A stretch of DNA of 64,000 nt from Patescibacteria group bacterium (GTDB lineage Bacteria; Patescibacteriota; Minisyncoccia; Phycocordibacterales; SIBU01), in assembly GCA_040390045.1 (NCBI GenBank), contig JAZJZC010000002.1:37113-101112 (forward strand). The letters run 5' to 3'. Numbering within the stretch: position 1 is the first letter of the stretch; each line of letters starts with the position of its first letter. A program made the position numbers and the translations under genes. Below the pieces are notes generated by a model, which was given only the letters and a program-made list of their open reading frames with translations, made no database searches and was not told the DNA's origin. Positions 24,547 to 62,125 of this stretch are shown piece after piece.

Positions 24547-24584
24547 AAAACGCCCCAATCTGCCGCCGCGGATTGGGGCGTTTT
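24547..24584. terminator. terminator hairpin
   Basis: aaaacgccccaatctgccgccgcggattggggcgtttt. Confidence 0.65.
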
Positions 24585-24626
24585 CACTATCACTATCTTC
24601 AGAAAATAGGGTATAATTTCTCCTAT

Positions 24627-27386
24627 ATGGAAAATCGATCTCTGGGCGTTGAGACCAAACAGTTTAGTTCTCCTGAAGATGAACTGAAATTTTTGCGTGA
24701 GGAAGTTTCTCGGCATCAAGTTGAAGCCAAAAAAGTTGGAACAGAACAAGCTCCTGATGTGGCTGCGAGTAGGGTACTTAAAGAATATGCCGCCAAACCT
24801 GTAGAAAAAGTGTTAGCACCTAATTATGCTTTGGAGCAGGTGCACAAGGAAGCCATTGTTCTCGAACTTTCTCCGGAAGAGCATGATAAAAAAATTGAAG
24901 AACTGATTGCTGTGCTTGAAGAGAAAGGCATAAAAAACACTCTGAGTATTATTCAAAAACTCGGGGATTTTCACCTGGAAGATGATTTTCATCGATTTTT
25001 AGTTCAGTATGTTAAAGCAGGGTTTGTGATCAAAGGTTTGCAGGAAAAAACCCCGCTTGCAAAGGCTTTTCATAGCACGCTCTATGAAATCAGTTTGCCT
25101 GAACTTTCAAAAGAAGATGGAGAAAAAGAATTAAAGGACCTGATTGCTGGCATGGAGCAATTTTACGCCGGCATGATGAGCGTTTCGCCTGACGGCAAAT
25201 CGAACAGTGACTCATTCAGTGTGGAAATTGCTAATGCCAACGGTAGTGAAGAATTTATTTTTTATGTTTCAGTGCCCGATAGTAAGCGCGCGCTTTTTGA
25301 AAAGCAGATTATGTCGATTTTTCATAACGCTAAAATCAAGGAAGCCAAAAATGATTATAATATATTTAATGAATCCGGTGTTTCGATTGCTTCACAGGCA
25401 TATTCTGGAAGAAAGCCGGTGTTTCCACTTAAAACTTATGAGGAATTTACTGTTGATCCTCTAAACGTACTGCTCAACGGTTTTTCAAAAATCAAAAAGC
25501 ATGGTGAAGGCGCCGCAGTGCAAATGGTTTTTCGCCCAGCTCCACACATGTACCTCGAAAAATATCGAGAAGCTTTGCAGAAATTACAGAAAGGTTCATC
25601 GGTTTCGCGTGCCACCGACATTCGCATGACTATCTTCGGCGCTATTATGAAGGAGGCTAAAGATATCATTACCAATCGAGACGCCAAACAGCTGAAGAAA
25701 AAGGAAAACCGCTCAACTAACCCGCAACTCGATGATGTGGCAATTGAACAGGTGAAGAATAAAGTGAGCAGTCCGATGCTTTTGACTTCGATTCGGGTTG
25801 TCGCCTCGGCAGAAAATGACGCTCGAGCCGAAGCTATTTTGAGTGATCTTGAAGCGGCATTCAATCAATTTGAAAACACTCACGGTAATAAACTTTCTTT
25901 CAGACAGATTAAAAATAAATCGAAGCTCACGGAATTTTTGCACGCTTTTTCTTTTAGAATTTTTGGAGACGATGATGCCGTGCCACTTAATCTCAAAGAG
26001 GTGACGACCATGATGCACTTCCCGTCGAGTCGTATCCAGTCGAGTCCGCAGTTAAAACATGCGAAAGCAGGCTCAGCCGCCGCGCCGCTCGACCTCCCAC
26101 ACGAAGGAGTGATACTGGGCGTCAACCGCGACCGCTCGGTTGAGACTAAGGTGTTCATGACCAAGGAAGATCGTTTACGTCATTTTTACGTCATTGGGCA
26201 AACCGGAACTGGTAAAACCACGCTTTTGAAAAACATGATCGTGCAGGATATTCAAAATGGGGAAGGGGTTTGTATGATTGATCCCCACGGCGCCGATATT
26301 CAGGATATTTTGGCTTCTATTCCGCCGAACCGCTACGAAGATTTAATTTACTTTGATCCGAGCAACACCGCGCGTCCGATGGCGCTTAACATGCTTGAGT
26401 ACGATTTGAGATTTCCTGAACAGAAAACCTTCGTGGTCAACGAAATGTTAAGCATTTTCAATAAACTGTTTGATATGAAAACGGCGGGAGGTCCGATGTT
26501 CGAACAGTATTTCCGCAACGCCGTTCTCTTAACGATTGAAGACCCAGAGTCAGGCAACACCCTTCTCGATGTTTCTCGCGTGCTTGCCAACAAAACCTTT
26601 CGTGAAATGAAATTGGCCAAGTGTAATAATCCAATCGTTACCCAGTTTTGGCGCGAAGTGGCGGATAAAGCGGGTGGGGAAGCGTCACTGGCCAACATCG
26701 TGCCCTACATCGTTTCCAAATTCGACAACTTTTTGGCGAACGACATCATGCGTCCGATTATCGCCCAAGAAAAATCCAGTTTCAATTTCCGCGAAATTAT
26801 GGATAACAAAAAAATTCTTTTGGTTAATTTGGCCAAAGGCAGACTGGGAGATATCAACGCCAACCTCATTGGTCTTATTTTAGTCGGCAAGATTTTAATG
26901 GCGGCGTTGTCGCGGGTTGATTCATACGGAAAAGATTTGCCGCCGTTTTATCTCTATATCGACGAATTCCAAAATATTACGACTGATTCAATTGCCACGA
27001 TTCTTTCCGAGGCTCGCAAGTACAAACTCTCGCTTCATGTCGCTCACCAGTTCATCGCCCAACTTGAGGATGAGATTAAAGACGCAGTGTTTGGCAACGT
27101 CGGTTCTTTGGCCGTGTTTCGGGTTGGATCTGAGGACGCGGAATTTTTGGCTAAACAGTTGGAACCGGTTTTTACAGAGCACGATATCGTCAATTTGGAC
27201 AACCGCAATGCGTATTTGAAACTTTTGGTAAATGGACGTCCTGTGAAGCCCTTCAATATTGAAACCATGGCGCCGCCAGTCGGCAATCGAGATAACATCG
27301 AGAAACTGAAAGAACTTTCCTATTTGAAATTCGGCCGCGATCGAGAAGAGGTAGAAGCGGAGATTATGAAAAAATACCAAAAGTAG
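24627..27386 (+). CDS. large P-loop ATPase of the VirB4/VirD4 (TraC/TraG/HerA-FtsK) clade, type IV secretion-like
   Basis: Walker A HFYVIGQTGTGKTTLLKNMI. Walker B FYLYIDEFQNI followed by ARKYKLSLHVAHQFIAQL (TraG/VirD4-like RK..hQs..Ql). About 480-aa N-terminal domain of unknown function. Start at the ATG at 24627 within ORF 24573-27386. Confidence 0.65.
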   Translation: MENRSLGVETKQFSSPEDELKFLREEVSRHQVEAKKVGTEQAPDVAASRVLKEYAAKPVEKVLAPNYALEQVHKEAIVLELSPEEHDKKIEELIAVLEEKGIKNTLSIIQKLGDFHLEDDFHRFLVQYVKAGFVIKGLQEKTPLAKAFHSTLYEISLPELSKEDGEKELKDLIAGMEQFYAGMMSVSPDGKSNSDSFSVEIANANGSEEFIFYVSVPDSKRALFEKQIMSIFHNAKIKEAKNDYNIFNESGVSIASQAYSGRKPVFPLKTYEEFTVDPLNVLLNGFSKIKKHGEGAAVQMVFRPAPHMYLEKYREALQKLQKGSSVSRATDIRMTIFGAIMKEAKDIITNRDAKQLKKKENRSTNPQLDDVAIEQVKNKVSSPMLLTSIRVVASAENDARAEAILSDLEAAFNQFENTHGNKLSFRQIKNKSKLTEFLHAFSFRIFGDDDAVPLNLKEVTTMMHFPSSRIQSSPQLKHAKAGSAAAPLDLPHEGVILGVNRDRSVETKVFMTKEDRLRHFYVIGQTGTGKTTLLKNMIVQDIQNGEGVCMIDPHGADIQDILASIPPNRYEDLIYFDPSNTARPMALNMLEYDLRFPEQKTFVVNEMLSIFNKLFDMKTAGGPMFEQYFRNAVLLTIEDPESGNTLLDVSRVLANKTFREMKLAKCNNPIVTQFWREVADKAGGEASLANIVPYIVSKFDNFLANDIMRPIIAQEKSSFNFREIMDNKKILLVNLAKGRLGDINANLIGLILVGKILMAALSRVDSYGKDLPPFYLYIDEFQNITTDSIATILSEARKYKLSLHVAHQFIAQLEDEIKDAVFGNVGSLAVFRVGSEDAEFLAKQLEPVFTEHDIVNLDNRNAYLKLLVNGRPVKPFNIETMAPPVGNRDNIEKLKELSYLKFGRDREEVEAEIMKKYQK

Positions 27387-46174: not shown

Positions 46175-46666
46175 TTATTTTCCGACTACAACGCCGAATT
46201 TCTTGAAGTCCGCATAGAGCGTTTCCCAGTTCGGCCAAACCACGAAAACGGTTTGTAGAAGAGGATATTTTGTTTTGTCCTCGACAGAAAAACCACACTC
46301 AACCCCAAGCATTTTATTGTCGTGGCCGAATGATGGCATAAAAGGACAGCGATTACGGGGTTTTCCCATGTCCTCTATGTCGTCTTGGGTAATGAGGCCT
46401 TGTTCGAACGCGGCGCCAAGGGATGTGAATTTGGCCGACTTTTTATACCACTCTGTTTCGTTGGTTGGTTCAAAGAGCTCGAAATCTTTGAATGACACTG
46501 CCGGGCTCCCGTAGGTAACCGGTCCAGCGCTCAGATCAGGAGTATGAGGGTCACCAAACATATCAAACAAAGTGACCGTTTTAAGTTCCGGCCTCGTTTC
46601 CAAGACCCTGAACGTTTCTTTACCGTCTATCCTCCCGAAGGCCTTGTTTTCTCCTACATACACCAT
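46175..46666 (-). CDS. hypothetical protein, GC-rich
   Basis: ORF 46175-46900. Likely start MVYVGENK. No recognised motif. Confidence 0.4.
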   Translation of the reverse strand: MVYVGENKAFGRIDGKETFRVLETRPELKTVTLFDMFGDPHTPDLSAGPVTYGSPAVSFKDFELFEPTNETEWYKKSAKFTSLGAAFEQGLITQDDIEDMGKPRNRCPFMPSFGHDNKMLGVECGFSVEDKTKYPLLQTVFVVWPNWETLYADFKKFGVVVGK

Positions 46667-46975
46667 GTTGTAGACTCGACCCTTTACGAGCTTGGAGTAA
46701 TCTTTTAATTTTTTCACGTGCGAGAACTGTTGTCGAACTGGCAATACGATAGAATATATAAGTATTTTTGTCAAGGCATGATATGGGTGGAAGCTAGATC
46801 TTCGGGGGACTCCTCCGTTCTCAACGCTCGAAGACTCACTGCTCTCCGCCACGGGAAAACAAATGTTTTCCCGACCCTTTCTTGGTTCAATTCTCCCCAT
46901 CTCTACCTAATACCTTTTCAAGGTAGTTTTGGAATTACCAAAACAAAACCACCGCCTTCTCAGGCGGTGGTTTAA

Positions 46976-51746: not shown

Positions 51747-51831
51747 GTTCTTTATATGTAGTCTACAACCCGTTCCAAATTTTGGCGCGGGTTTTTCTTT
51801 TGGTTGTTTTTGGGGTAGTATTGTTTTAAAT

Positions 51832-51904
51832 ACGCGCGTAGCTCAGTTGGTAGAGCGGTCGACTTATACTCGACTGGTCGGGGGTTCGAGTCCCTCCGCG
51901 CGTA
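51832..51904 (+). tRNA. tRNA with anticodon UAU (Ile2-type), from a manual cloverleaf
   Basis: Acceptor acgcgcg/cgcgcgt, D arm gctc-agttggta-gagc, anticodon arm gtcga-cttatac-tcgac, variable tggtc, T arm ggggg-ttcgagt-ccctc. 73 nt, no encoded CCA. Confidence 0.7.
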
Positions 51905-52070
51905 GCGGAGCGTCATTTTGTGCGCGCGAGGAAGCTCCTGTGGAGCTTTCGGGAGGGGCTCGAACACCGGAGTCATGTTTTTTCAGCAGAAAAAACAGAC
52001 GAGGTGGTGGCCAGACCTAAACGAGCGACGGCGAGTTTAGAGTCGCGGCCGAGTCCAAGCACGCGCACAA

Positions 52071-54233
52071 TTATTCAAAATGTACTCCCTCACCTCGCTT
52101 TGAAACCGCTTCAGCCAAGAGTGGGTAGCGGGAGAGGGTTTCGTCATCAGCGATGAGCCGCGCAGCCTCCAGCCGCGCGGCTTCAACCATTTTCAAATTT
52201 TGTAACGCTTCCATGGCGATATCAGAAACGCCCCACTGCTTGGCACCAGAAAGTTCTCCAGCTCCGCGAAATTTTAAATCATATTCTGCCAATTCAAATC
52301 CATTTTTGGCAGTTTGGACAGCTTTCAGTCGGTCAACGGTTTTAGAAGTTTTAGCTTCCGCGAAAACGTAACAATAGGCTTGGTCGTTGCTCCTGATGAC
52401 TCGCCCGCGGAGTTGGTGAAGCTGTGCGAGACCAAAGCGCTCAGCGCCTTCAATCACAATAACCGTGGCGTTAGGAACGTTTACGCCAACTTCCACGACG
52501 GACGTCGCTACCAAAATTTTTGTCTCGCCCGATTTAAATTTTTCCATGGCGCGATCTTTGGCGTCAGGAGTCATTTTGCTGTGGAGAATATCGATTTCAT
52601 ATTCAGGGAAAATTTTTTCTTGCAACCGTTCTGCTTCTTCCATCACCGACTTGGCAATCATCGCACTTTCTTTGTTTGGATCAGGTAAATTAATTCGTGG
52701 GCAAATGACGTAGGCCTGTCGGCCCGCGCGGAGTTCTTGGCGAATTTTTTCGTACGTTGCTTCTCGCGCGGTCGGCAAAACAATTTCAGTAATGATCGGT
52801 TTCCTTCCGACTGGCATTTGGTCGAGCAGGGTTAAATCAAGATCCCCGTACATGGTAAGCGCGAGGGTTCTTGGGATTGGCGTGGCTGTCATGGAAAGTA
52901 AATGAGGGGCGATGTTATCTTTCCTAACCAGTTTTTGTCTTTGAGCGGTTCCGAAGCGGTGTTGTTCGTCAATAATAACGTACGCCAGATTTTTAAATTT
53001 TACGGCTTTTTGAATAAGCGCATGGGTGCCGATAAGAATGGGAATTTCGCCGTTCGCGAGCCATTTCAAAAGTTGAGTGCGGGAAATATCCGTCCAGCCG
53101 TCAGGATTGACCTTCGAGGGAAATTTTCGACAGCCCGAGCCGGTGATAAGCGCAATTTGGATTGGTAGATGAGAAAAATATTTTATAAATGATTCAAAAT
53201 GTTGTGTGGCGAGAATTTCGGTCGGGCACATGTACGCGGTTTGCAATGCGCCAAAATTTTGCCCCTTTGGTCTGCTGGTTGTTACCGCATACACTGTTGT
53301 GGCTGCCACTGCGGTTTTTCCAGAACCCACATCACCCTCAAGGAGGCGGCTCATGGCATGGCCTTTTTTAAAATCATCAAAAATGGCTTGGTTGGCTTTT
53401 TGTTGCGCCTCGGTTTGTTTGAAAGGAAAACGAGAGGTGAAGGATTCGATTTCTGCAGCCGATTTTTCAATCACGAAACTTTTATTTTTCTGCCAGGCCT
53501 TTTTAGCGCGCTGTTTCCCCAGTTGAATTAAAAATACCTCTTCGAAGGCGAAACGTTTTCGGGCAGATTGCGCGTCAGCAATTTTAAGAGGGGAGTGAAT
53601 CCAGACTAGAGCAGTTTTAATTCCCGGTAAGTTGTATCTCTCGAGAATGTCAGTAGGAATCGGGTCGGGAAAATTTTCTAAAATTCCAGACTTGAAAATT
53701 TTCCCGACCGCGTGGAAAATCCAGTTGGACGTGACGCCACGAGATTCAGGATAGACCGGGTAAAGCGCATGTTTTTCTCCTTCTGCGCCGAAAAGATTTT
53801 CACCGACGCCAATTGGGAGTTTGTCGACAGTTTCAATTTTAGGATTGCTAAAATAGAGCTCTTGGGTTTTCTTGCGTTGCGAAATTTTACCCTCGATGCG
53901 TACGAGCGATCCTTCCGTGGTCATTTTTGCGAGGTATGGTTGGTTAAACCAAACTGCCTTAATCCTCCCTGTGTCGTCTGTAACCCAGCCGTCGGCCATA
54001 CTGATTTTAGTTTTGAAACCTTTGCCGGTTTTCAGCCCTGAGATTTTTCCAAAAACGACCGCTTGCTCGCCAGCCACGAGGTTGGCAATATTTTTCATTT
54101 CCGAAGTGTCGCCATAGCGAGTGGGGAAATGGTACAGCAGATCGAGCACTGTTTTAATGCCAAGTTTCCTGAGCGCTTCTTTCTGAAATTTACTCAGTCG
54201 AAATTGAGTTTCAATACTTTCGGTTTGCAACAT
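52071..54233 (-). CDS. recG: ATP-dependent DNA helicase RecG
   Basis: 720 aa. Wedge/OB N-terminus. Helicase motifs GDVGSGKT and DEQHRFG. Confidence 0.92.
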   Translation of the reverse strand: MLQTESIETQFRLSKFQKEALRKLGIKTVLDLLYHFPTRYGDTSEMKNIANLVAGEQAVVFGKISGLKTGKGFKTKISMADGWVTDDTGRIKAVWFNQPYLAKMTTEGSLVRIEGKISQRKKTQELYFSNPKIETVDKLPIGVGENLFGAEGEKHALYPVYPESRGVTSNWIFHAVGKIFKSGILENFPDPIPTDILERYNLPGIKTALVWIHSPLKIADAQSARKRFAFEEVFLIQLGKQRAKKAWQKNKSFVIEKSAAEIESFTSRFPFKQTEAQQKANQAIFDDFKKGHAMSRLLEGDVGSGKTAVAATTVYAVTTSRPKGQNFGALQTAYMCPTEILATQHFESFIKYFSHLPIQIALITGSGCRKFPSKVNPDGWTDISRTQLLKWLANGEIPILIGTHALIQKAVKFKNLAYVIIDEQHRFGTAQRQKLVRKDNIAPHLLSMTATPIPRTLALTMYGDLDLTLLDQMPVGRKPIITEIVLPTAREATYEKIRQELRAGRQAYVICPRINLPDPNKESAMIAKSVMEEAERLQEKIFPEYEIDILHSKMTPDAKDRAMEKFKSGETKILVATSVVEVGVNVPNATVIVIEGAERFGLAQLHQLRGRVIRSNDQAYCYVFAEAKTSKTVDRLKAVQTAKNGFELAEYDLKFRGAGELSGAKQWGVSDIAMEALQNLKMVEAARLEAARLIADDETLSRYPLLAEAVSKRGEGVHFE

Positions 54234-56048: not shown

Positions 56049-56185
56049 GGAGAGGTGTCAGAGTGTTGAATTGCGAAGGCTTGGAGCAATTCAAGGCCGG
56101 AGTCCGACGGGACGAGGCGGGGTCGCGAGATTCGCCAGTAGGCGAATACTTGTGACCTAATGTGCAGCTTTTAAAGCTGCAACGG
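56049..56185 (+). pseudogene. tRNA-Ser-derived 5'-half element carrying a ~90-nt insert in the D-loop (E1)
   Basis: ggagaggtgtcagag-[56064-56153 insert]-gacctaatgtgcagc-ttttaaa-gctgc matches the first 45 nt of the adjacent tRNA-Ser but has no variable or T arm. Confidence 0.5.
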
Positions 56186-56227: not shown

Positions 56228-56317
<90 letters not shown>

Positions 56318-56367
56318 AATGAACCGCAAGAAAGTCTAAATGACTTTCGCGCGGCTCATCATTGCGT

Positions 56368-56605
56368 GGAGAGGGAGGGATTCGAAAGACGGAATCCGCC
56401 TTCGGCGGATGAGTCGGGGTCGCGAGTACTTAGGCTTTTGTTGGTCCGCCGCGGCGGACAACAAAAGACTTAGTAACTTGTGACCGAATCTCGATTCGAA
56501 CAGCGGAGCGAAATTTTTACTAAAAAATTTCGCGAGCTGGTGCCCAGACCAAAATTTTCGACGGAAAATTTTGAGTCGCGGGAGAAACTCCCTCCCTCTC
56601 CGCCA
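56368..56605. other. structured tRNA-Ser-derived element E3, bounded by ggagagg ... cctctcc-g-cca
   Basis: Termini equal the tRNA-Ser acceptor strands. Contains the UUCG hairpin ccgccttcggcgg, a 16-bp hairpin, and the module cggggtcgcgag..acttgtgacc shared with E1. Strand undetermined. Confidence 0.5.
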
Positions 56606-56668: not shown

Positions 56669-57151
56669 ATGAAGAAAAATATCGCACTCATAATACTCAT
56701 TGTTCTCGTCCTGGTCTTGGCCTGGCTCGTGTTCTCGCCTAATTCTCCTGCAACTTCGGTTAATCAACCCCACTACGATACAGCGCTCTCTGCATCGGGC
56801 AATATCACTTGTACCTACCCTCGAGTCTTACACGCAAGTTACCAGAGCGGTGAAATAACACACGAGTTACCTAAACCCGAAACAAACCCGATCATAATGA
56901 CTTTTAGCGGGATTGATTCGGAGACACCAAAAGTACAATTTATCGATTCTACTCAAACAATCTCTGAGGTTCCTATTATGAAAGTTGTAGATACAAATGA
57001 AAAGTTGATGTTTGTCGAGGGTGATGGTGATCCTTATTTGACCGTGCATACAATATACAAAAATGTAGGAATTGGAACTTATGAAAAATCAATGTCACTT
57101 TTGGGTATCCCAGTAGGAACAATTGCTATGGGTAGCTGTGTGGATTATTGA
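56669..57151 (+). CDS. hypothetical N-terminally anchored secreted protein
   Basis: 160 aa with a signal/anchor segment. Confidence 0.45.
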   Translation: MKKNIALIILIVLVLVLAWLVFSPNSPATSVNQPHYDTALSASGNITCTYPRVLHASYQSGEITHELPKPETNPIIMTFSGIDSETPKVQFIDSTQTISEVPIMKVVDTNEKLMFVEGDGDPYLTVHTIYKNVGIGTYEKSMSLLGIPVGTIAMGSCVDY

Positions 57152-57159
57152 TGGTGCAT

Positions 57160-57483
57160 ATGAAAAAAGCTATTAAATGGATCGTAGGAATAGTACTTAT
57201 ACTCTGGATATTTTCTGCCGCCCCTTCGTTTCTGGCTGGCGTTTTCTGGTCAGAAAGTAATGCACCTTGGGAGAAGGTCGATGCCTTCTACTATCCAGAT
57301 GCAAACAACTTATCCGAATGGGAAAGTCAGATAGATGTGGGTTCGGTCCAAGCTTGCCGTGATTGGGTTGAAGATTCAGCTGCCGCAAAGGGTGACCCAA
57401 ATCTAGAACGAGGTGATTATGAATGTGGAGTTAGTTGCAAAAGCAAAGATGGTTTCAATGTATGTCGTCTAACTGTTGAATAA
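57160..57483 (+). CDS. hypothetical small anchored Cys-containing protein
   Basis: Start at MKKAIKW within ORF 57148-57483. TM anchor. 4 Cys in the C-terminal part. Confidence 0.4.
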   Translation: MKKAIKWIVGIVLILWIFSAAPSFLAGVFWSESNAPWEKVDAFYYPDANNLSEWESQIDVGSVQACRDWVEDSAAAKGDPNLERGDYECGVSCKSKDGFNVCRLTVE

Positions 57484-57485
57484 AT

Positions 57486-57992
57486 ATGGACAAGAAAAAT
57501 ATCATAATTATCGTGTTGATAATCGCACTCGGAGCGACGGTTTATTTTACCTCTCAAAAAAATCAAGCTTCCCAACTAGAAAATTCTGGAACAAATTCAA
57601 TTTTGCCAAGCCAGGAACTAAGAGCGGCTTACACAGAATCTCTACAGCATTCTGCTATGGTAGATATCGCGGAACTTTCTTGTTTCCCGACAAGTCGGTT
57701 TGATTGTGGTGGGGGGAGTTGTACAGCTTCCGCTCCAGCAACTTATTATTTCGTAGATTATGGAACAGAGAGTGCAACCTATTTTAGGTGCGATGCCAAA
57801 GGATGCGATCCATACCCAGTTGAAGTAACCACTTCTGGAGAATTTACCCAATTTACTCCATCGCAAGGTCAAGCAATGATGTTCAAGGTCGCCACCGGAG
57901 ATATTTGGGACAACAAAGGAGAATTTATTGATATTGCAACACTCGGAACTGGAGCAATAGTATCTTCGGGTAAATGCGAATTCACAAAATAA
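57486..57992 (+). CDS. hypothetical anchored Cys-rich secreted protein
   Basis: 168 aa. TM anchor. CFPTSRFDCGGGSC..., CDAKGCD. Confidence 0.45.
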   Translation: MDKKNIIIIVLIIALGATVYFTSQKNQASQLENSGTNSILPSQELRAAYTESLQHSAMVDIAELSCFPTSRFDCGGGSCTASAPATYYFVDYGTESATYFRCDAKGCDPYPVEVTTSGEFTQFTPSQGQAMMFKVATGDIWDNKGEFIDIATLGTGAIVSSGKCEFTK

Positions 57993-57996
57993 ATTT

Positions 57997-58791
57997 ATGG
58001 TAAAGAGAAAACAACCCGAACCAATAGAAGCAAATCTGTCATATCAACAAATGGAGGCAGCTATTCCTAAAATTGACAGGAGGATAGCCGATCTTGAAAA
58101 TTTCGATGTCAATTCCATTACTGACCGAAGCGATGCAAGAATTAATGCACTCGAGAAATCATTAGATGCACTACTGGTTTCCGTTTTTGGGGCGGGAACA
58201 GTGGAATACGATCGTTACCATTGGCAAGTTACACGTTTGGATATTGCTTCAATGAACATGATGCATCGAACCCCAATTCATGAAATTCACGAAGGGTTAC
58301 GTCGCGGTATTGCTACCGCTAAAGCTCATTTGGAAGTAATCAAAAAAGGATTTCTTGAAGAACTTGGAGATGCGGGACTTAATTCTGCGGGAAAAACTCT
58401 AAAAGCATATGAAGGACTTGAACTACATCCCGAAATTGAGCGTGCGGTCGGTAATCTATACAGAGATGGTCACTATGCAAATGCTGTGGAGGATGCAACC
58501 AAAGCGCTCAACGCTTTGGTACGAATGCGTAGCGGCATTGAAGACAAAGATGGTAGTACGCTGATGGAGACGGTTTTTAGTCCAAAAAATCCACTTCTGA
58601 AATTTAACAAACTCGTTGATGTTTCTGATATAGATGAGCAAAGGGGATTTATGATGATGTTTGCTGGAGCTGTAGCTGGATTGCGCAATCCGCGCGCTCA
58701 TAAGATTATCAAGGATGACCCAGAGATGGCGTTGGAATTTATTGCCTTTGTCAGTCTTCTGGCAAAACTAGTGGATAAAAGCTCAAAATAA
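57997..58791 (+). CDS. HEPN-superfamily protein, Ymh (TIGR02391)-like C-terminal domain, predicted RNase/defense
   Basis: C-terminal MMMFAGAVAGLRNPRAHKIIKDDPEMALEFIAFVSLLAKLV carries an Rx4H motif (RNPRAH) in a helical context typical of the Hypoth_Ymh HEPN family. Confidence 0.55.
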   Translation: MVKRKQPEPIEANLSYQQMEAAIPKIDRRIADLENFDVNSITDRSDARINALEKSLDALLVSVFGAGTVEYDRYHWQVTRLDIASMNMMHRTPIHEIHEGLRRGIATAKAHLEVIKKGFLEELGDAGLNSAGKTLKAYEGLELHPEIERAVGNLYRDGHYANAVEDATKALNALVRMRSGIEDKDGSTLMETVFSPKNPLLKFNKLVDVSDIDEQRGFMMMFAGAVAGLRNPRAHKIIKDDPEMALEFIAFVSLLAKLVDKSSK

Positions 58792-58810
58792 TTCAGCTAC
58801 TTTTTAAGTC

Positions 58811-59512
58811 ATGAAGGATCTAAAAAATATCTTAAAGGGGAAAATAATAGAGATATTGATAATAATTGTTGTTTTACTTTTTATTCTATATTTGGTATGT
58901 CCGACACTCAGGGATTATATTTTTGAGCAAAAAATTGAAGCGAACTTTGTACTCGGATTCTTAACAGTCATTACCTTGATGGTCAGTATTTGGCAGAATA
59001 CAAAAGATAGGAAGCTAACCTACAACATAAATGTTTGGGAATCGGTAAGAAATAATGGCTTAGCAATAATAAGCAAACTGATCGCAATTAAGCAAAAAAG
59101 TGACATTATCGTCAAAACTCTAAAAAGCCATCAGGATGCCATAAAGAAAAGACAGGTATTCATGGATTCTAACGATACCTTGTCAAAGAGAGATATTGAC
59201 GATGGATTTCAGATAGTTGCTGCTTATGCGGATACATATTTTAGAGATGAATGTGAGAAGTGGAATGAAATGTTAAACAAGTTGAGTGCTATGGCAACAG
59301 ATAATATAAACGTAATCAAGAATTACGAGATAAATTTGCAGTTAATTATGAGTGGAACTGATTTTAGAAATTCAACTCTAGACAAACTAGATGAAATTGT
59401 TGCTAACGCAGAGAAAGCAGACAAAGAAATTGCTCAGATCACTGAGGAGATGAGAAATAAAATTATTGGAAAGACAAATAGTATTAGCGATAAAATCAAG
59501 AATAATTTATAG
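58811..59512 (+). CDS. AT-rich hypothetical membrane protein (2 TM) with a long helical C-terminus, possible partner of the HEPN gene
   Basis: 233 aa. GC visibly lower than the flanks. Confidence 0.45.
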   Translation: MKDLKNILKGKIIEILIIIVVLLFILYLVCPTLRDYIFEQKIEANFVLGFLTVITLMVSIWQNTKDRKLTYNINVWESVRNNGLAIISKLIAIKQKSDIIVKTLKSHQDAIKKRQVFMDSNDTLSKRDIDDGFQIVAAYADTYFRDECEKWNEMLNKLSAMATDNINVIKNYEINLQLIMSGTDFRNSTLDKLDEIVANAEKADKEIAQITEEMRNKIIGKTNSISDKIKNNL

Positions 59513-59644
59513 CACAGAGATTAAATTATTGGATAATCCACGATGTTTTGCCCCTTATCCGACTTCGGCTTGGGCACCTCGAACCAGTCTGGATGGACTT
59601 TGTAGAAGCTCTGATTTCTGTATCCTTTTTCGGACAATCAACTC

Positions 59645-59848
59645 CTATCTTTTATACTCCAAAATATCCCCCGGTTGACAATCAAGCGCTTTGCAAACAG
59701 CCTCTAGTGTCGATAGCCGAATCGCTTTGGCTTTTCCATTTTTCAAAACGGAAATGTTGGCCATCGTGATGCCAACTTTCTCGGCGAGTTCGGTGACGCT
59801 CATTTTTCGCTTGGCCAAATAAACGTCTATGTTGATAATGATCGCCAT
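59645..59848 (-). CDS. XRE-family helix-turn-helix transcriptional regulator
   Basis: MSVTELAEKVGITMANISVLKNGKAKAIRLSTLEAVCKALDCQPGDIL. Confidence 0.75.
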   Translation of the reverse strand: MAIIINIDVYLAKRKMSVTELAEKVGITMANISVLKNGKAKAIRLSTLEAVCKALDCQPGDILEYKR

Positions 59849-59852
59849 GGTT

Positions 59853-60335
59853 TTAAACAGTTAAGTCGTTTTCGGATTTTATGTCCACTGCTTTTTGCAA
59901 AATTCGTTCAAACATTGCGGCCACACTGGCGCCTAGGCCAGAGATAGCAATTATTAAAAGACCCATGAAAACACCACCCGCAATGTCATCCTTACCGCGC
60001 TGAAATACAAATAGATAGGCCTCTGCTCCAAGCGCAAAAGCAACGAGGGTTATTGCGCAGTATCTTATAATTTGTAAAGCCCTCACGGAATTTATTGAGA
60101 AGATTTTATTTTTTCCAATATATCCGAGCAACTTGAACGCTTGGTAGAGTGCTACAAAAAACGCGATGGACGCTGTATACGCACACGCTAAGAATGGGTC
60201 GTTGAAATATATTTGAAAGAGGGTAGCGTTTACATTTCTGCCCTCGATGTGAGGTTCCCAAAGCATAAAGGCAAGAGCGCCGAGGCCGATGAGCACAATA
60301 ACCACCTGAAGCAATATTGTTGAACTTTTTTTCAT
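59853..60335 (-). CDS. DUF2975-like membrane protein, typically paired with a small XRE HTH regulator
   Basis: 4 TM helices. 5 nt upstream of the HTH gene on the same strand. Confidence 0.5.
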   Translation of the reverse strand: MKKSSTILLQVVIVLIGLGALAFMLWEPHIEGRNVNATLFQIYFNDPFLACAYTASIAFFVALYQAFKLLGYIGKNKIFSINSVRALQIIRYCAITLVAFALGAEAYLFVFQRGKDDIAGGVFMGLLIIAISGLGASVAAMFERILQKAVDIKSENDLTV

Positions 60336-60486
60336 GAAAGATTTATATTAAATTATAAGAGCCGGCGCTCAATGGACGTTGCGCCGACATGATTTCGCTA
60401 AATCACATCTTAATTTATCACTTATTGTTTGTCAATATATATTTATCGTTATTTTTACATAGCTTGAAACATTCGAGCTGTTCATT

Positions 60487-60792
60487 ATGTTACAAGAGTA
60501 CATGAATTCTCTAATTAAAAAACCCAGCGCTTGGATGCCTATAGCTTTTTCGTTGACGATGTTGGCGTCATTTTTTATTGTGCCGATGCTTTCTGGACCT
60601 CTAGTTCGGCAAGCGGATGAGGGAACTGGCGCACACCTTTTTCAATTGTGGTTAGTTTTAGAGGTCGTGATGATAACTATTTTTGCCATTAATTGGTTAC
60701 CGAAAAAACTGAAAGAGACTTTTGTAGTTTTAGTAATTCAGGTTGTCGCGGTGGTTGCGGCCTGTGCTCCGGTTTTCTATTTCAACGTTTAG
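60487..60792 (+). CDS. small hypothetical membrane protein
   Basis: 101 aa, 3 TM. Confidence 0.35.
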   Translation: MLQEYMNSLIKKPSAWMPIAFSLTMLASFFIVPMLSGPLVRQADEGTGAHLFQLWLVLEVVMITIFAINWLPKKLKETFVVLVIQVVAVVAACAPVFYFNV

Positions 60793-60876
60793 ATTATTTC
60801 CCCTTTAACTTTCTGCCCAATTGCTGTAGTATACTTATTTCACACTTTAACAAAATTAAATTTTTAACTAAAACAG

Positions 60877-61779
60877 ATGCGTAAAATTATTTCAATTGTC
60901 GTGGTAGTGGCTATCATTCTTGTTGCTGGGTTTTTTTACTTGAATAATTATATCTATCAAGAGAAGCAGGGTCCCACAGACTACAAAGACGCCACGTTTC
61001 TAATAGAGAACAAGTCTGTCACACTTGTTGACGGCGTATCTGAAGTGGCACAAGAAGGTTCGTCTTCAAAAATAGTCACCAAGTATTTTGGCAATCAGGC
61101 GAAAGGGGATTTGAACAAGGATGGCATTCCTGATCTTGCGTTTATTCTTACTCAAGAAACAGGTGGAAGCGGCACTTTCTTTTATGTTGTCGGAGCGATT
61201 CAAACTCCAAACAATACTTACAATGGCACGGACGGAGTTTTGCTTGGAGATAGGGTTGCTCCACAGTCAACAGAAATTCGTAGTGACGGAATATTGGTGG
61301 TAAATTTTGCAGTTCGACAGCCGAACGAGCCGATGACTGCATCACCTTCGGTTGCTAAAAGTATCTGGCTTAAACTTGATCTTGAAAGCTTGAGATTTGG
61401 CATAGTCGAACAGAATTTTGAAGGTGAAGCTGACCCTGCACACATGACACTTACTATGAAGCCTTGGAGTTGGGTTTCCGTGTTGTATAACGACGCCCGA
61501 GAGATCAAACCAAATCGCGCAGATGTTTTTGTTCTAACCTTTGGAGGCGACGGTAAATTTACAGCGAAGACTGATTGTAACAGCGCAGGAGGGCAGTATG
61601 TTGCGAAAGATGGTACGATCACCTTTAGTAATATTTTTGCCACGAAGATGTATTGTGAAGGATCACAGGAAGCGGAATTTTTAAAACTTCTTGAGAATAC
61701 GAGTAGTTATCACTTTACGTCGCGAGGACAACTGATTCTTGACCTCAAGTTTGATAGCGGTTCGGTGATTTTTCAATAG
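60877..61779 (+). CDS. membrane-anchored protein with a C-terminal META (HslJ-like, DUF306) domain
   Basis: DCNSAGGQYVAKDGTITFSNIFATKMYCEGSQEAEFLKLLENTSSY. Confidence 0.6.
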   Translation: MRKIISIVVVVAIILVAGFFYLNNYIYQEKQGPTDYKDATFLIENKSVTLVDGVSEVAQEGSSSKIVTKYFGNQAKGDLNKDGIPDLAFILTQETGGSGTFFYVVGAIQTPNNTYNGTDGVLLGDRVAPQSTEIRSDGILVVNFAVRQPNEPMTASPSVAKSIWLKLDLESLRFGIVEQNFEGEADPAHMTLTMKPWSWVSVLYNDAREIKPNRADVFVLTFGGDGKFTAKTDCNSAGGQYVAKDGTITFSNIFATKMYCEGSQEAEFLKLLENTSSYHFTSRGQLILDLKFDSGSVIFQ

Positions 61780-61799: not shown

Positions 61800-61886
61800 G
61801 GAGAGATGGATGAGTGGTTTAAATCAACGGTTTACTAAACCGTCGACCTTTAATTAGGTCCGCGAGTTCGAATCTCGCTCTCTCCG
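61800..61886 (+). tRNA. tRNA-Ser-like (long variable arm) with an unusual ACU anticodon
   Basis: Acceptor ggagaga/tctctcc, anticodon arm acggt-ttactaa-accgt, variable arm gacc-tttaatta-ggtc, T arm gcgag-ttcgaat-ctcgc, discriminator G. Confidence 0.65.
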
Positions 61887-61927
61887 CATTTGAAAATCCG
61901 CCCTTTTGGGGCGTGATTTTCTTATGC

Positions 61928-62058
61928 GGAGAGAAGAAAGCATGGGAATGCTTTCGCGCGAGATTCGAAGCCCGATTGAGCTTTTTCTGGAAGCGAAGCG
62001 TACCAGAAAAACCAATCGGGGTACTGACCCTGTAAGGGTCGAACTCGCTCTCTCCGCA
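61928..62058. other. structured tRNA-derived element F, bounded by ggagaga ... tctctcc-g
   Basis: Termini equal the acceptor strands of the adjacent tRNA (61800). Internal gcgag..ctcgc T-stem-like pairing, hairpin gaaagcat-ggga-atgctttc, and the core cggggtactgaccc related to the E3 module. Confidence 0.45.
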
Positions 62059-62125
62059 ACGAAAATTTACCCGCGGGCGAATCTCACTCCCCGCTAACTG
62101 ATTTTAATTCTGTTATACTTCATTA

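Follow-up and report, generated by a model that had tools for sequence, protein, structure and literature searches.

Small structured cassettes downstream of Patescibacteria tRNA and tmRNA genes bear termini that match the 3' end of the resident gene

Cassettes beside two tRNA-Ser genes and tmRNA

The window (the whole 64,000-nt stretch of DNA analysed here) contains two tRNA-Ser genes 5.5 kb apart, each followed by a cassette, and a further cassette lies next to the tmRNA gene. The features are listed with the evidence for each in parentheses.

46790-46975 (46790 approximate), minus strand: tmRNA-linked cassette, downstream of the tmRNA gene (tail-copy search, sequence)
56049-56181, plus strand: E1, which partly copies the 5' half of tRNA-Ser(GCU) and lies upstream of the real tRNA (sequence; repeats D3, D12, D7 and D17)
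56228-56317, plus strand: tRNA-Ser(GCU), resident gene of locus 1 (ARAGORN; Rfam tRNA model)
56318-56367, plus strand: E3 spacer hairpin (sequence, inverted repeat I3, fold prediction)
56368-56605, plus strand: E3, composite cassette with type C and type B modules (sequence, repeats, fold, alignments)
61800-61887, plus strand: tRNA-Ser(ACU), resident gene of locus 2, copied at its 3' end (ARAGORN; Rfam tRNA model, 56.6 bits; sequence)
61888-61927, plus strand: F spacer with terminator-like hairpin (repeat analysis, fold prediction)
61928-61969, plus strand: F 5' arm (sequence; fold; layout recurs in other genomes)
61970-62043, plus strand: F type A module (alignments A2 and A3, RNAalifold; covariance model R1)
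62044-62058, plus strand: F 3' arm, CTCGC-TCTCTCC-G-CA (sequence; direct repeat D1)
62073-62094, plus strand: putative remains of an older, decayed cassette on the distal side of F (sequence, inverted repeat I2; by eye)

ARAGORN and the Rfam tRNA model RF00005 called only 61800-61887 and 56228-56317 at the two loci, and neither F (61928-62058) nor E3 (56368-56605) was called as a tRNA or pseudogene, even at E <= 10. tRNA-Ser(ACU) has the T stem GCGAG/CTCGC, the T loop TTCGAAT (61867-61873), the acceptor 3' strand TCTCTCC (61879-61885) and the discriminator G at 61886. The acceptor strands are GGAGAGA/TCTCTCC in tRNA-Ser(ACU), as an earlier note on this DNA had read them, and GGAGAGG/CCTCTCC in tRNA-Ser(GCU).

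The F spacer holds the hairpin CGCCC-TTTT-GGGGCG (61899-61913) followed by a T run. Its flanks (61879-61898 vs 61915-61934) are 90% complementary, which allows pairing of the leader and the F 5' arm with the tRNA 3' end and its trailer. The 5' arm opens with the acceptor-complement GGAGAGA (61928-61934), is interrupted by an inserted hairpin, GAAAGCAT-GGGA-ATGCTTTC (61936-61955), and resumes with the T-stem copy GCGAG (61958-61962) and ATTCGAA (61963-61969), the reverse complement of the T loop. The module consists of a long hairpin H1, GCCCGATTGAG...CCAATCGGGG (61970-62021), the invariant GTACTG (62021-62026), a short hairpin GACCC-TGTAA-GGGTC (62026-62040) and GAA. The terminus CTCGCTCTCTCCGCA (62044-62058) is an exact 15-nt direct copy of tRNA-Ser(ACU) 61874-61888. 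The fold z-score of F is -6.9. Distal to F, the remnant reads CGCGGGCGAA-TCTCAC-TCCCCGC and may represent the 3' end of a type B module joined to a tRNA-Ser(ACU) tail with the CTCAC T-stem variant found at the related locus L002.

E3 starts with the 5' arm GGAGAGG-GAGGG-ATTCGAA (56368-56386), and this start, GGAGAGGGAGGGATTCGAA, is a perfect 19-nt reverse complement of tRNA-Ser(GCU) 56297-56315. A type C module extends to about 56485, followed by the junction GAAT-CTCG-ATTCGAA and a type B module at about 56503-56588. The 3' arm TCCCTCCCTCTCCGC (56589-56603) is a 15-nt direct copy of the tRNA-Ser(GCU) tail, and together with the next CA it reads GCCA at 56602-56605. In the spacer, the outer flanks GCAATGA/TCATTGC lengthen the pairing of the tRNA 3' end with the E3 5' arm, and no T run follows the hairpin. 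The fold z-score of E3 is -10.5.

These observations agree with the boundaries that the earlier note gave to F (ggagaga...tctctcc-g, here 61928-61934 and within 62044-62058) and to E3 (ggagagg...cctctcc, whose ends match tRNA-Ser(GCU)). The note also saw in F a gcgag/ctcgc pairing around the T-loop sequence attcgaa. These letters are present, but ATTCGAA is the reverse complement of the T loop rather than a T loop, and it pairs with CGAAT of the 3' arm. Nor is cggggtactgaccc a shortened form of the module in E1 and E3: the F module is type A, with the invariant core GTACTG-stem-TGTAA-stem-GA, and not type C. F and E3 have a tRNA-derived platform in common and differ in module class.

The tmRNA-linked cassette comprises a terminator hairpin, an inverted copy of the tmRNA tail, AGAGATGGGGAGAATTGAA (46904-46886, one mismatch), and a type E module, the fourth module type; no clear 3' arm remains. 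This cassette overlaps the nominal start of the ORF at 46175-46900. In E1, the tRNA-derived parts are GGAGAGGTGTCAGAG ... CTAATGTGCAGCTTT, and the D loop is interrupted by a hairpin and a type C module (to 56157), an arrangement also seen at L071. The TTTTAAA loop of E1 was considered as an ochre-suppressor anticodon and rejected: E1 has neither a T arm nor a 3' half, and its loop copies that of tRNA-Ser(GCU) with 2 nt deleted.

Cassettes at other Patescibacteria tRNA and tmRNA genes

Patescibacteria relatives and metagenome contigs yielded dozens of cassettes that share the strand of a tRNA or tmRNA gene and lie 20-180 nt downstream of it. The earlier note had suggested looking for further elements next to tRNA genes of related genomes, and they occur beside tRNAs of at least 27 anticodon classes as well as tmRNA. 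Among RecG-anchored Patescibacteria relatives, 30 of 157 tRNA and tmRNA genes have their own 16-nt tail copied within 1 kb downstream. About one fifth of the genes examined in the sampled clade bear a cassette. In metagenome contigs, at least 120 stretches match one module motif, some of them by chance in GC-rich DNA. A same-strand tRNA precedes 62 of the 82 motif-confirmed type B or C cassettes, and some of the others follow tmRNA or an intron-bearing tRNA. The covariance model R1, built for type A modules along the lines proposed in the note, scored F at 84.6 bits (E = 1.5e-17), and of its 19 matches with E below 1e-4, 16 follow a tRNA or tmRNA on the same strand at a distance of 16-320 nt.

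The inference of the note that the termini track the acceptor stem of the neighbouring tRNA holds at the two loci here and in numerous other genomes. Of 74 tRNA-linked metagenome cassettes, 42 are closed by the exact 12-mer of their own tRNA (T-stem 3' strand plus acceptor 3' strand), compared with 4 of 5270 mismatched pairs, in which tRNA and cassette belong to different anticodons. The own-tail match is far beyond chance. Furthermore, a direct repeat of the 3' part of the gene flanks the insert, with 15 nt at F and E3, and in 42-47 of the 74 cassettes generally. A full-text literature search found no published description of such cassettes, which apparently form a widespread and previously undescribed family in Patescibacteria.

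A common unit built on the resident tail

Cassettes are non-coding, measure about 110-250 nt, and recur at this size in dozens of genomes. Each unit runs in the order spacer hairpin, 5' arm, structured module (A, B, C or E) and 3' arm; several modules can be present in one unit, and the spacer, usually a terminator-like hairpin, can hold a cargo gene. In the 5' arm, the resident tail appears as its reverse complement, covering the T loop, the 3' strands of T stem and acceptor, the discriminator and sometimes the trailer; a covarying hairpin usually splits this arm between its acceptor and T parts. The 3' arm is a direct copy of the resident tail from C56 of the T loop.

The 5' arm exactly complements the 3' arm and is not derived from the 5' strand of the tRNA: next to a tRNA-Ala with G3.U70, the element has A3-U70 instead. 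Likewise, the T-loop complement follows the loop variant, as TTCGATT, TTCGAGT and TTCAATT are matched by AATCGAA, ACTCGAA and AATTGAA, respectively. The left edge of the direct repeat is sharp, with a peak at 17 nt (C56; 29 of 63 cases). The right edge is variable, peaking 2 nt past the acceptor and reaching up to 66 nt into the trailer; the duplicated target measures 13-83 nt, and the repeat at L154 is a perfect 83-nt one. The copy of the acceptor 5' strand (the acceptor-complement) lies within one mismatch in only 32 of 74 cassettes, indicating that this part of the arm is dispensable. CCA is encoded in 19 of 63 elements (about 30%); in 9 cases the element has CCA and its tRNA gene does not, and in 3 cases the reverse holds.

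Modules with features of structured RNA

The modules display generic marks of structured non-coding RNAs, namely compensatory changes and strand-specific G.U pairs. Compensatory changes affect 19 of 27 pairs in type C, 18 of 20 in type A and 15 of 23 in type B, counts that derive from related sequences and are no proof of transcription. One G.U pair on the tRNA strand is invariant in 22 of 22 type C modules. A minus-strand gene converging on a shared terminator was rejected, because both the covariation and the conserved G.U pairs agree with the tRNA-sense strand.

No Rfam 15 model matched the modules, either at gathering thresholds in the window, at E <= 10 at the two loci, or at E <= 1 at 15 further element-bearing loci. 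The models compared include the hammerhead, twister, HDV-like, pistol and hatchet ribozymes, group I and II introns, SRP RNA, RNase P RNA, Y RNA and riboswitches. Matches were limited to tRNAs, tmRNA and spurious hairpins on the palindrome that the tRNA tail makes with the 5' arm. Between tRNA-Ser(ACU) and F stands a terminator-like hairpin, and no promoter-like site was detected.

Gain, loss and replacement of units

Comparison of related species revealed that sites differ in their content. L006 and L007 have an identical tRNA-Ser(GCU) and the same arms with different spacers, and carry a B unit and a C unit, respectively, whereas the tRNA-Ser(GCU) site of L042 is empty. Similarly, a site filled in L012 is empty in L009, L011 and L063. 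Tandem or partial units were observed at L006, L184, L097 and L022, and the unit of L002 encloses an ORF. Between the window and L002 (83% RecG identity), the 3' arm including CCA is identical, and the module sequence is markedly diverged by eye. Filled and empty alleles were not found within one species, module-free arm palindromes were absent from all loci (about 2 Mb), and the genes flanking the F and E3 sites are not conserved in relatives. Exact-protein look-ups returned matches in the same sample only.

The units are too small to encode an integrase, and Pfam scans of 20 window ORFs detected no integrase, transposase or reverse transcriptase domain. No recombinase, reverse transcriptase or nuclease was linked to the units, and the genes beside them in the window encode none of these domains. 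The F and E3 sequences had no match in plasmid or phage records, and 2.9 million viral contigs contained no match to the specific patterns for type C and type A; the 9 matches of a first viral scan were all due to chance in GC-rich coding DNA. L070 holds a conventional island with 45-nt tRNA-Ile repeats.

Arms probably copied from the resident gene

F, E3 and the tmRNA-linked element probably belong to one cassette family, installed 3' of Patescibacteria tRNA and tmRNA genes in the same orientation. We lean toward a reading in which the arms are copied from the resident tRNA when a cassette is installed at its 3' end, and persist thereafter as the helix that closes an RNA fold. The arms would be made or supplied by recombination at the resident tail, in an event resembling att-site integration or target duplication. 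The termini would track the neighbouring gene because they are copies of its tail, and they would be retained, by selection or repeated conversion, because both arms form the closing helix of the module in the tRNA-sense strand. Copying from the adjacent tRNA, one of two explanations offered by the earlier note, fits the complementarity of the 5' arm to the 3' arm, the edge at C56 and the exchange of modules between the same arms. Units may move as a small circle, perhaps rod-like in shape, or through template switching at the palindromic core of the T loop. Transcription of the cassette could occur by read-through from the tRNA promoter, and its tRNA-like stem would let RNase P and 3'-end enzymes trim the product.

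The acceptor-complement and the T-stem copy are interleaved with a hairpin conserved in the family, so a single copy-and-paste step is insufficient. Cassette lineages specialised on particular tRNAs could in principle carry their arms with them and spread horizontally, with no copying at each event. Three other routes were examined. Retro-copying of a mature tRNA is not supported in general, as the excess of CCA is weak (9 vs 3) and most repeats follow the gene trailer; a deletion derivative of an intron-bearing tRNA copy was rejected because the T loop is present in the 5' arm as its complement rather than as such; and 'empty' arm palindromes as a precursor stage were discarded, given that none was found.

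An extension of arm copying, which we regard as possible and put forward tentatively, is that the cassettes form a class of mobile structured-RNA elements that target any tRNA or tmRNA tail and rebuild their own arms from the resident at each installation. The target, and not the element, would then program specificity. Installation might proceed through a small single-stranded circle of rod-like shape, or else through a template switch within the palindromic T-loop core. The modules would be the active parts, either ribozyme-like or serving as binding sites for an enzyme.

Alternative explanations for the matching termini

The other explanation of the earlier note was a functional tRNA mimic that must resemble its neighbour. 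On this view the element would be an RNA with an acceptor/T-arm minihelix, matched to its neighbour by selection alone, so that it shares the enzymes of that tRNA (aminoacyl-tRNA synthetase, EF-Tu, modification enzymes) or competes with it. The arms do pair into a helix of 12-17 bp whose sequence is that of the acceptor and T stems, they are as conserved as the tRNA between the window and L002, and CCA is present in some elements whose tRNA gene has none. However, such a mimic seems unlikely: the cassettes have no T loop, its complement being base-paired or in a junction; A-U stands in for the tRNA-Ala identity pair G3.U70; over half of the elements have a degenerate acceptor 5' copy; CCA is encoded in a minority; and in several cases the direct repeat runs far into the non-functional trailer. 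Judged from sequence, the cassettes do not show the combination of acceptor identity elements, a T loop and a 3' CCA expected of an RNA that can be aminoacylated. RNase P and the CCA-adding enzyme, for their part, do not need identity to one particular tRNA. As in the cassettes, an acceptor/T-stem-like helix closes a larger RNA in the tRNA-like domain of tmRNA, YrlA Y RNAs, MALAT1 mascRNA and viral tRNA-like structures, and this analogy suggests that tRNA enzymes may process the cassette ends. These domains keep a real T loop and a fixed sequence of their own, whereas the cassettes have a T-loop complement and the helix of the upstream tRNA.

The cassettes might also be relics of islands inserted by tyrosine or serine integrases at tRNA or tmRNA 3' ends, the modules being leftover attP-arm DNA of larger elements since deleted. 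Such integration is classically recognised by direct repeats of the tRNA or tmRNA 3' end, the island at L070 shows them in conventional form, a gene lies between the repeats at L002, and the arrays, with a decayed copy distal, resemble accretion. Phages, genomic islands and cis-mobilisable elements indeed share with the cassettes the target (from the T loop to the 3' end), the direct repeat of the tail on the far side, tandem accretion and an occasional cargo gene. Nevertheless, we consider this origin quite unlikely, since the units are complete at 110-250 nt and recur as such, with an inverted tail copy that integrase sites do not have and with an interior whose RNA-type covariation and invariant G.U are unexplained by protein-binding attP arms. 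Furthermore, no integrase is nearby in the window, and the viral contigs and the phage and plasmid records searched contain no copy.

Introns offer another comparison. Archaeal bulge-helix-bulge tRNA introns occupy non-canonical positions that include the T loop. In Patescibacteria, tRNA genes frequently contain introns, group I introns among them (PMC13011429). Like the cassettes, these are structured RNA inserts at tRNA genes, and they occur in the same phylum; the cassettes differ in leaving the resident tRNA intact upstream and in bringing a duplicate 3' exon. A cassette could be an intron-like insertion with a spare 3' exon: tRNA and cassette would form one transcript in which the proximal tail pairs with the 5' arm and the tRNA body with the distal 3' arm, placing the hairpin and module in the T loop, from which they would be excised by the module or a protein; in a variant, the alternative pairing would be a folding switch controlling tRNA maturation. 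This swapped topology is the predicted minimum-energy fold of the co-transcript at locus 2 (-136.0 vs -119.3 kcal/mol) and at locus 1 (-196.8 vs -191.8 kcal/mol), the sharp repeat boundary at 55/56 resembles a splice junction, and the leader complements the tRNA trailer and not the element's own tail. Even so, this reading is improbable. Both upstream tRNAs are complete, which makes splicing unnecessary; the terminator-like hairpin separates the tRNA from F; known ribozyme and intron models, including the group I model RF00028 at the window loci, do not match; excision would be needed from at least four unrelated module types; and no locus was seen with the distal 3' end as its only intact one. 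At an unrelated locus, L166, a true group I intron lies just upstream of a cassette.

Finally, a one-off tandem duplication or chance event confined to the window and devoid of structural conservation, for which two related tRNA-Ser genes 5.5 kb apart could have seeded the repeats and which the earlier note had named as the finding that would count against it, is refuted by the recurrence of the same architecture, with covarying modules, at so many anticodon classes and tmRNA in many genomes.

Relation to other repeats and implications

Like MITEs and REP/BIME mosaics, the cassettes are small, non-coding, modular, bounded by inverted repeats and present in several copies per genome. In contrast to these, their inverted repeats come from the target and vary by locus, their sites are only tRNA and tmRNA tails (as in 16 of the 19 type A matches), and the duplication is long, at 13-83 nt. 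By analogy only, they also recall CRISPR arrays and casposons, which integrate in a staggered manner with a long target duplication. A partly palindromic repeat is duplicated at each insertion beside a fixed 'leader', here the tRNA body, and the distal position of the decayed unit in the window follows the same order. No cas1-like genes were found, however, and the 'spacers' consist of conserved structured modules instead of foreign DNA that was captured.

Patescibacteria account for a large part of bacterial diversity, and their tiny genomes nonetheless retain many copies of these non-coding cassettes. To our knowledge, almost no non-coding RNAs have been characterised in this group, and if the cassettes are functional RNAs they would add at least three or four new conserved folds. 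If they are mobile, they would insert at essential RNA genes without a linked recombinase and with arms that match any targeted gene, which would be relevant to research on mobile elements and programmable insertion. The tRNA-like fragments of the cassettes can mislead tRNA annotation and, together with the long palindromes, break short-read assemblies, as observed for Logan contigs, which break off exactly at cassette loci.

Cassettes of the window

Each tRNA-Ser gene of the window is followed by a cassette, F after tRNA-Ser(ACU) and E3 after tRNA-Ser(GCU). A cassette, or unit, comprises a spacer hairpin, a 5' arm, one or more structured modules (types A, B, C or E) and a 3' arm.

Features of the window
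46790-46975, minus strand: tmRNA cassette, with the tmRNA tail repeated in inverted orientation at 46904-46886 and a type E module
52071-54233, minus strand: RecG, with up to 84% identity to its counterparts in genomes of Patescibacteria assembled from metagenomes
56049-56181: E1, upstream of tRNA-Ser(GCU) and partly copying that gene's 5' half; the D loop of E1 holds a type C module
56228-56317: tRNA-Ser(GCU), called by ARAGORN and Rfam
61800-61887: tRNA-Ser(ACU), called by ARAGORN and Rfam
61928-62058: F

The acceptor strands of the two tRNA-Ser genes differ by one base (GGAGAGG for GCU, GGAGAGA for ACU). F opens with GGAGAGA and a hairpin, continues with GCGAG-ATTCGAA and roughly 75 nt of structured sequence, and closes with CTCGC-TCTCTCC-G-CA, its final 15 nt being an exact copy of the tRNA-Ser(ACU) 3' end (61874-61888). 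The first 19 nt of E3 match the reverse complement of the tRNA-Ser(GCU) tail perfectly, and the element ends with a 15-nt direct copy of that tail followed by CA, so that the end reads GCCA. F (z-score -6.9), E3 (-10.5) and E1 (-6.6) all fold much more stably than shuffled controls. The description in the earlier note was thus correct in substance. F and E3 have a tRNA-derived platform in common but differ in their module.

A remnant located 3' of F (62073-62094) was read by eye as the 3' end, now decayed, of a type B unit. This distal remnant has the older T-stem variant CTCAC, as does the related locus L002, and F the current one, CTCGC; comparison of the two suggests that newer units sit beside the tRNA. 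The tmRNA cassette overlaps the nominal ATG of ORF 46175-46900, the true start of which probably lies further downstream. The arrangement of E1 is kept in a distant relative (L071, 4262-4380, 57% RecG identity); therefore, modules also occur grafted into a D loop.

Termini follow the resident gene across genomes

To look beyond the window, we used 80 RecG-anchored relatives. Together with the window, these contain 157 tRNA/tmRNA genes, 30 of which have a copy of their own tail within 1 kb downstream (16-nt tail, at most 2 errors, direct and/or inverted). They include tRNA-Ser (GCU, ACU, CGA), tRNA-Ile (UAU, GAU) and tmRNA genes, the window's own tmRNA among them. A metagenome scan with the motif common to types B and C gave at least 120 matching stretches, part of which are chance matches in GC-rich DNA. 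Among the matches listed, 74 of 131 have a same-strand tRNA 25-180 nt upstream, with nearly every anticodon represented. Motif-confirmed cassettes with sufficient upstream sequence numbered 62 with a same-strand tRNA versus 20 without, and some of these 20 come after a tmRNA or a tRNA bearing a group I intron.

In 42 of the 74 cases, the cassette is closed by exactly the 12-mer of its own tRNA, the T-stem and acceptor 3' strands combined; among tRNA/cassette pairs with a different anticodon, this holds for 4 of 5270. The 12-mers comprise 36 distinct sequences from 27 anticodon classes. The proposal that termini track the neighbouring tRNA is therefore borne out.

Modules have the covariation of structured RNA

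As read from the relatives' loci, a type A module has a long hairpin followed by GTACTG, a short stem capped by a TGTAA loop and, last, GA. Type B is CGCCGGAGC-hairpin-GAGGCGGTGCCCAGAC-hairpin-AGTCGCGGGCGA and type C is AGCCGGAGC-hairpin-GAGGCGGGGTCGCGAG-hairpin-CTTGTGACC; type E, which is rarer, occurs in L041 and at the tmRNA of the window. In RNAalifold alignments, compensatory changes affect 18 of 20 predicted pairs in type A, the family of F, 15 of 23 in type B and 19 of 27 in type C, where one G.U pair is invariant in 22 of 22 sequences. G.U pairs are consistent with the tRNA-sense strand. Judged from these alignments, the modules look like RNA.

Searched against 1.23 Mb, the type A covariance model scored F at 84.6 bits (E = 1.5e-17), and of its 19 matches with E <1e-4, 16 follow a tRNA or tmRNA on the same strand at a distance of 16-320 nt. 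E1 and E3 gave no match to this model. F is thus a type A element and not, as first thought, a shortened version of the E1/E3 module, the likeness being a chance resemblance. No Rfam 15 family matched any module in the window and 15 other loci.

An extra small motif, GAAAAAyGTACyCrTGGTC, follows type A or B modules in L006 (7290-7310, 7460-7480), L031 and L112, and in L012, L101 and L143 a type B or C module is followed by a minimal unit, GTACTG-stem-TGTAA-stem-GA, indicating that sub-modules combine.

Arms match the resident tail

From the tRNA onward, the layout is a trailer with an often terminator-like hairpin, the complement of the acceptor 3' strand, a covarying hairpin, the complements of the T-stem 3' strand and of the whole T loop, the module(s), and finally T-loop positions 56-60, the T-stem 3' strand, the acceptor 3' strand and the discriminator. 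The 5' arm complements the 3' arm and is not copied from the tRNA 5' strand; T loops TTCGATT, TTCGAGT and TTCAATT correspond to 5'-arm AATCGAA, ACTCGAA and AATTGAA. T-stem copy and loop complement are kept in 53 of 74 cassettes, the direct repeat in 47 of 74, and the acceptor complement (at most 1 mismatch) in 32 of 74, almost always 31-32 nt before the module. The direct repeat starts at a sharp left edge (17 nt from C56 in 29 of 63 cases). On the right it varies, usually ending 2 nt beyond the acceptor strand and at times running 26-66 nt into the trailer and terminator; L154 has a perfect 83-nt repeat.

In the best-supported reading, which we consider somewhat probable, the cassettes are insertion elements of tRNA/tmRNA gene tails, with arms copied from the resident, the gene directly upstream; the likeness of the termini to the neighbour would then reflect copying of the neighbour's tail. 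A true tRNA mimic that needs likeness to its neighbour is unlikely, since the T loop is lost, the acceptor complement is degenerate, repeats extend into trailers, and the element after a tRNA-Ala with G3.U70 has lost this pair, carrying A3-U70 instead.

Turnover and persistence of units

The tRNA-Ser(GCU) gene is identical in L006 and L007, and its flanks are similar; the former has a type B unit and the latter a type C unit, with different spacers and the same arms. Only 13 nt separate the two tRNA-Ser genes of L042. The tRNA-Ile site is filled in L012 and empty in L009, L011 and L063, where the spacer hairpin is also missing. In L006, one tRNA is followed by two units that differ in module and have identical arms; further multi-unit or partial cases are L184 (1.5 tandem units), L097 (decayed second unit) and L022 (longer array). 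Module-free arm palindromes did not occur in the loci searched. A type B unit at tRNA-Ser(GCU) is common to the window and L002, with an unchanged 3' arm including CCA and a module that by eye is markedly divergent, partly via compensating changes. This unit and a same-subtype counterpart of F at tRNA-Ser(ACU) in L006 indicate that units can persist and that arms are under constraint.

Relics of ordinary integrase islands would account for the direct repeat, the arrays and a cargo gene, such as the ORF within the L002 unit, but leave the inverted copy, the constant small size and the RNA-type covariation unexplained; we regard this origin as slightly less likely again than mimicry. No integrase, transposase or reverse transcriptase was found among the window neighbours, and no cassette copy in viral contigs or phage and plasmid records. 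L070 carries, at a reverse-strand tRNA-Ile, two 45-nt copies of the tRNA-Ile 3' half, one 40 nt and the other 460 nt downstream of the gene, which enclose a small ORF. Given this conventional island signature, ordinary tRNA-targeted integration also occurs in the clade.

A tRNA-Ile with anticodon TAT (51831-51906) adjoins recG and is kept at 55 related loci; it has no cassette in the window and has one in L006, L033, L041, L055 and L073.

Proposed installation of the cassettes

For insertion at gene tails, the installed unit would be spacer, 5' arm, module(s) and repeat. Recombination at the resident tail would install it, arm copies being produced or selected then, and the arms would then persist for their joint role in closing the fold of the module. 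The intermediate may be a circular unit folded as a rod through pairing of repeat with 5' arm and of trailer with leader; or else installation could involve template switching at the T-loop core, the palindrome TTCGAA/TCGA. The main weaknesses of this account are that no linked enzyme was found, that no species yielded both a filled and an empty allele, and that resident-specific arm segments are interleaved with a family-conserved hairpin. The more radical version, in which arms are reprogrammed from the target at each installation, is a tentative possibility. Cassettes may be transcribed by read-through from upstream, with no terminator before E3 and a terminator-like hairpin before F, and their RNA could be trimmed by tRNA-end enzymes.

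In the lowest-energy predicted fold, the tRNA body is paired with the distal tail, and the proximal tail is held with the 5' arm in a long hairpin (swapped fold at F, -136.0 versus -119.3 kcal/mol), as would suit an intron-like or switch-like tRNA-cassette pair; however, the tRNA is complete without the cassette and ribozyme models gave no match, making this quite improbable. A single tandem duplication confined to the window is refuted, as the pattern is general and covarying.

The cassettes resemble tRNA-targeting integrative elements in position and in the repeat left, and tRNA-like-ended RNAs in fold, but fit the definition of neither, nor of any Rfam family. We file them as insertion elements of tRNA gene tails carrying structured RNAs. 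We found no description of them in the literature, the nearest papers dealing with group I introns of tRNA genes in Patescibacteria (PMC13011429) and with the pieces of tRNA genes that integrating elements leave behind (PMC9897764). Widespread in a major, poorly understood phylum, they merit follow-up.

Host and other features of the window

The RecG relatives' genomes are labelled Ca. Taylorbacteria, Paceibacteria or Parcubacteria. Based on this RecG match, FtsH and the tmRNA gene, the window is chromosomal DNA of a Candidate Phyla Radiation member. Positions 24573-27386 encode a large protein with VirD4/TraG-type coupling-protein domains, which are typical of type IV secretion-like systems in Patescibacteria. 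The 5 kb between the tRNA-Ser loci (56669-61779) contain small genes, including Hypoth_Ymh, DUF2975 and a META-domain protein, and may be a variable region, as the flanking ORFs tested have almost no syntenic counterparts among the 80 relatives. Contigs L001, L211 and L212 (Logan assembly of SRR26324623, same sample) end inside tRNA-Ser(ACU) or near the start of E3, breaks that apparently stem from the repeated tRNA tails.

The second tRNA-Ser (61800-61887) has anticodon ACT in the loop TTACTAA; A at position 34 is rare among bacteria. This gene was also called beside tRNA-Ser(GCT) in 19 relatives (among L002-L081), and AGT codons outnumber AGC codons (79 versus 46) in 15 long ORFs of the window.
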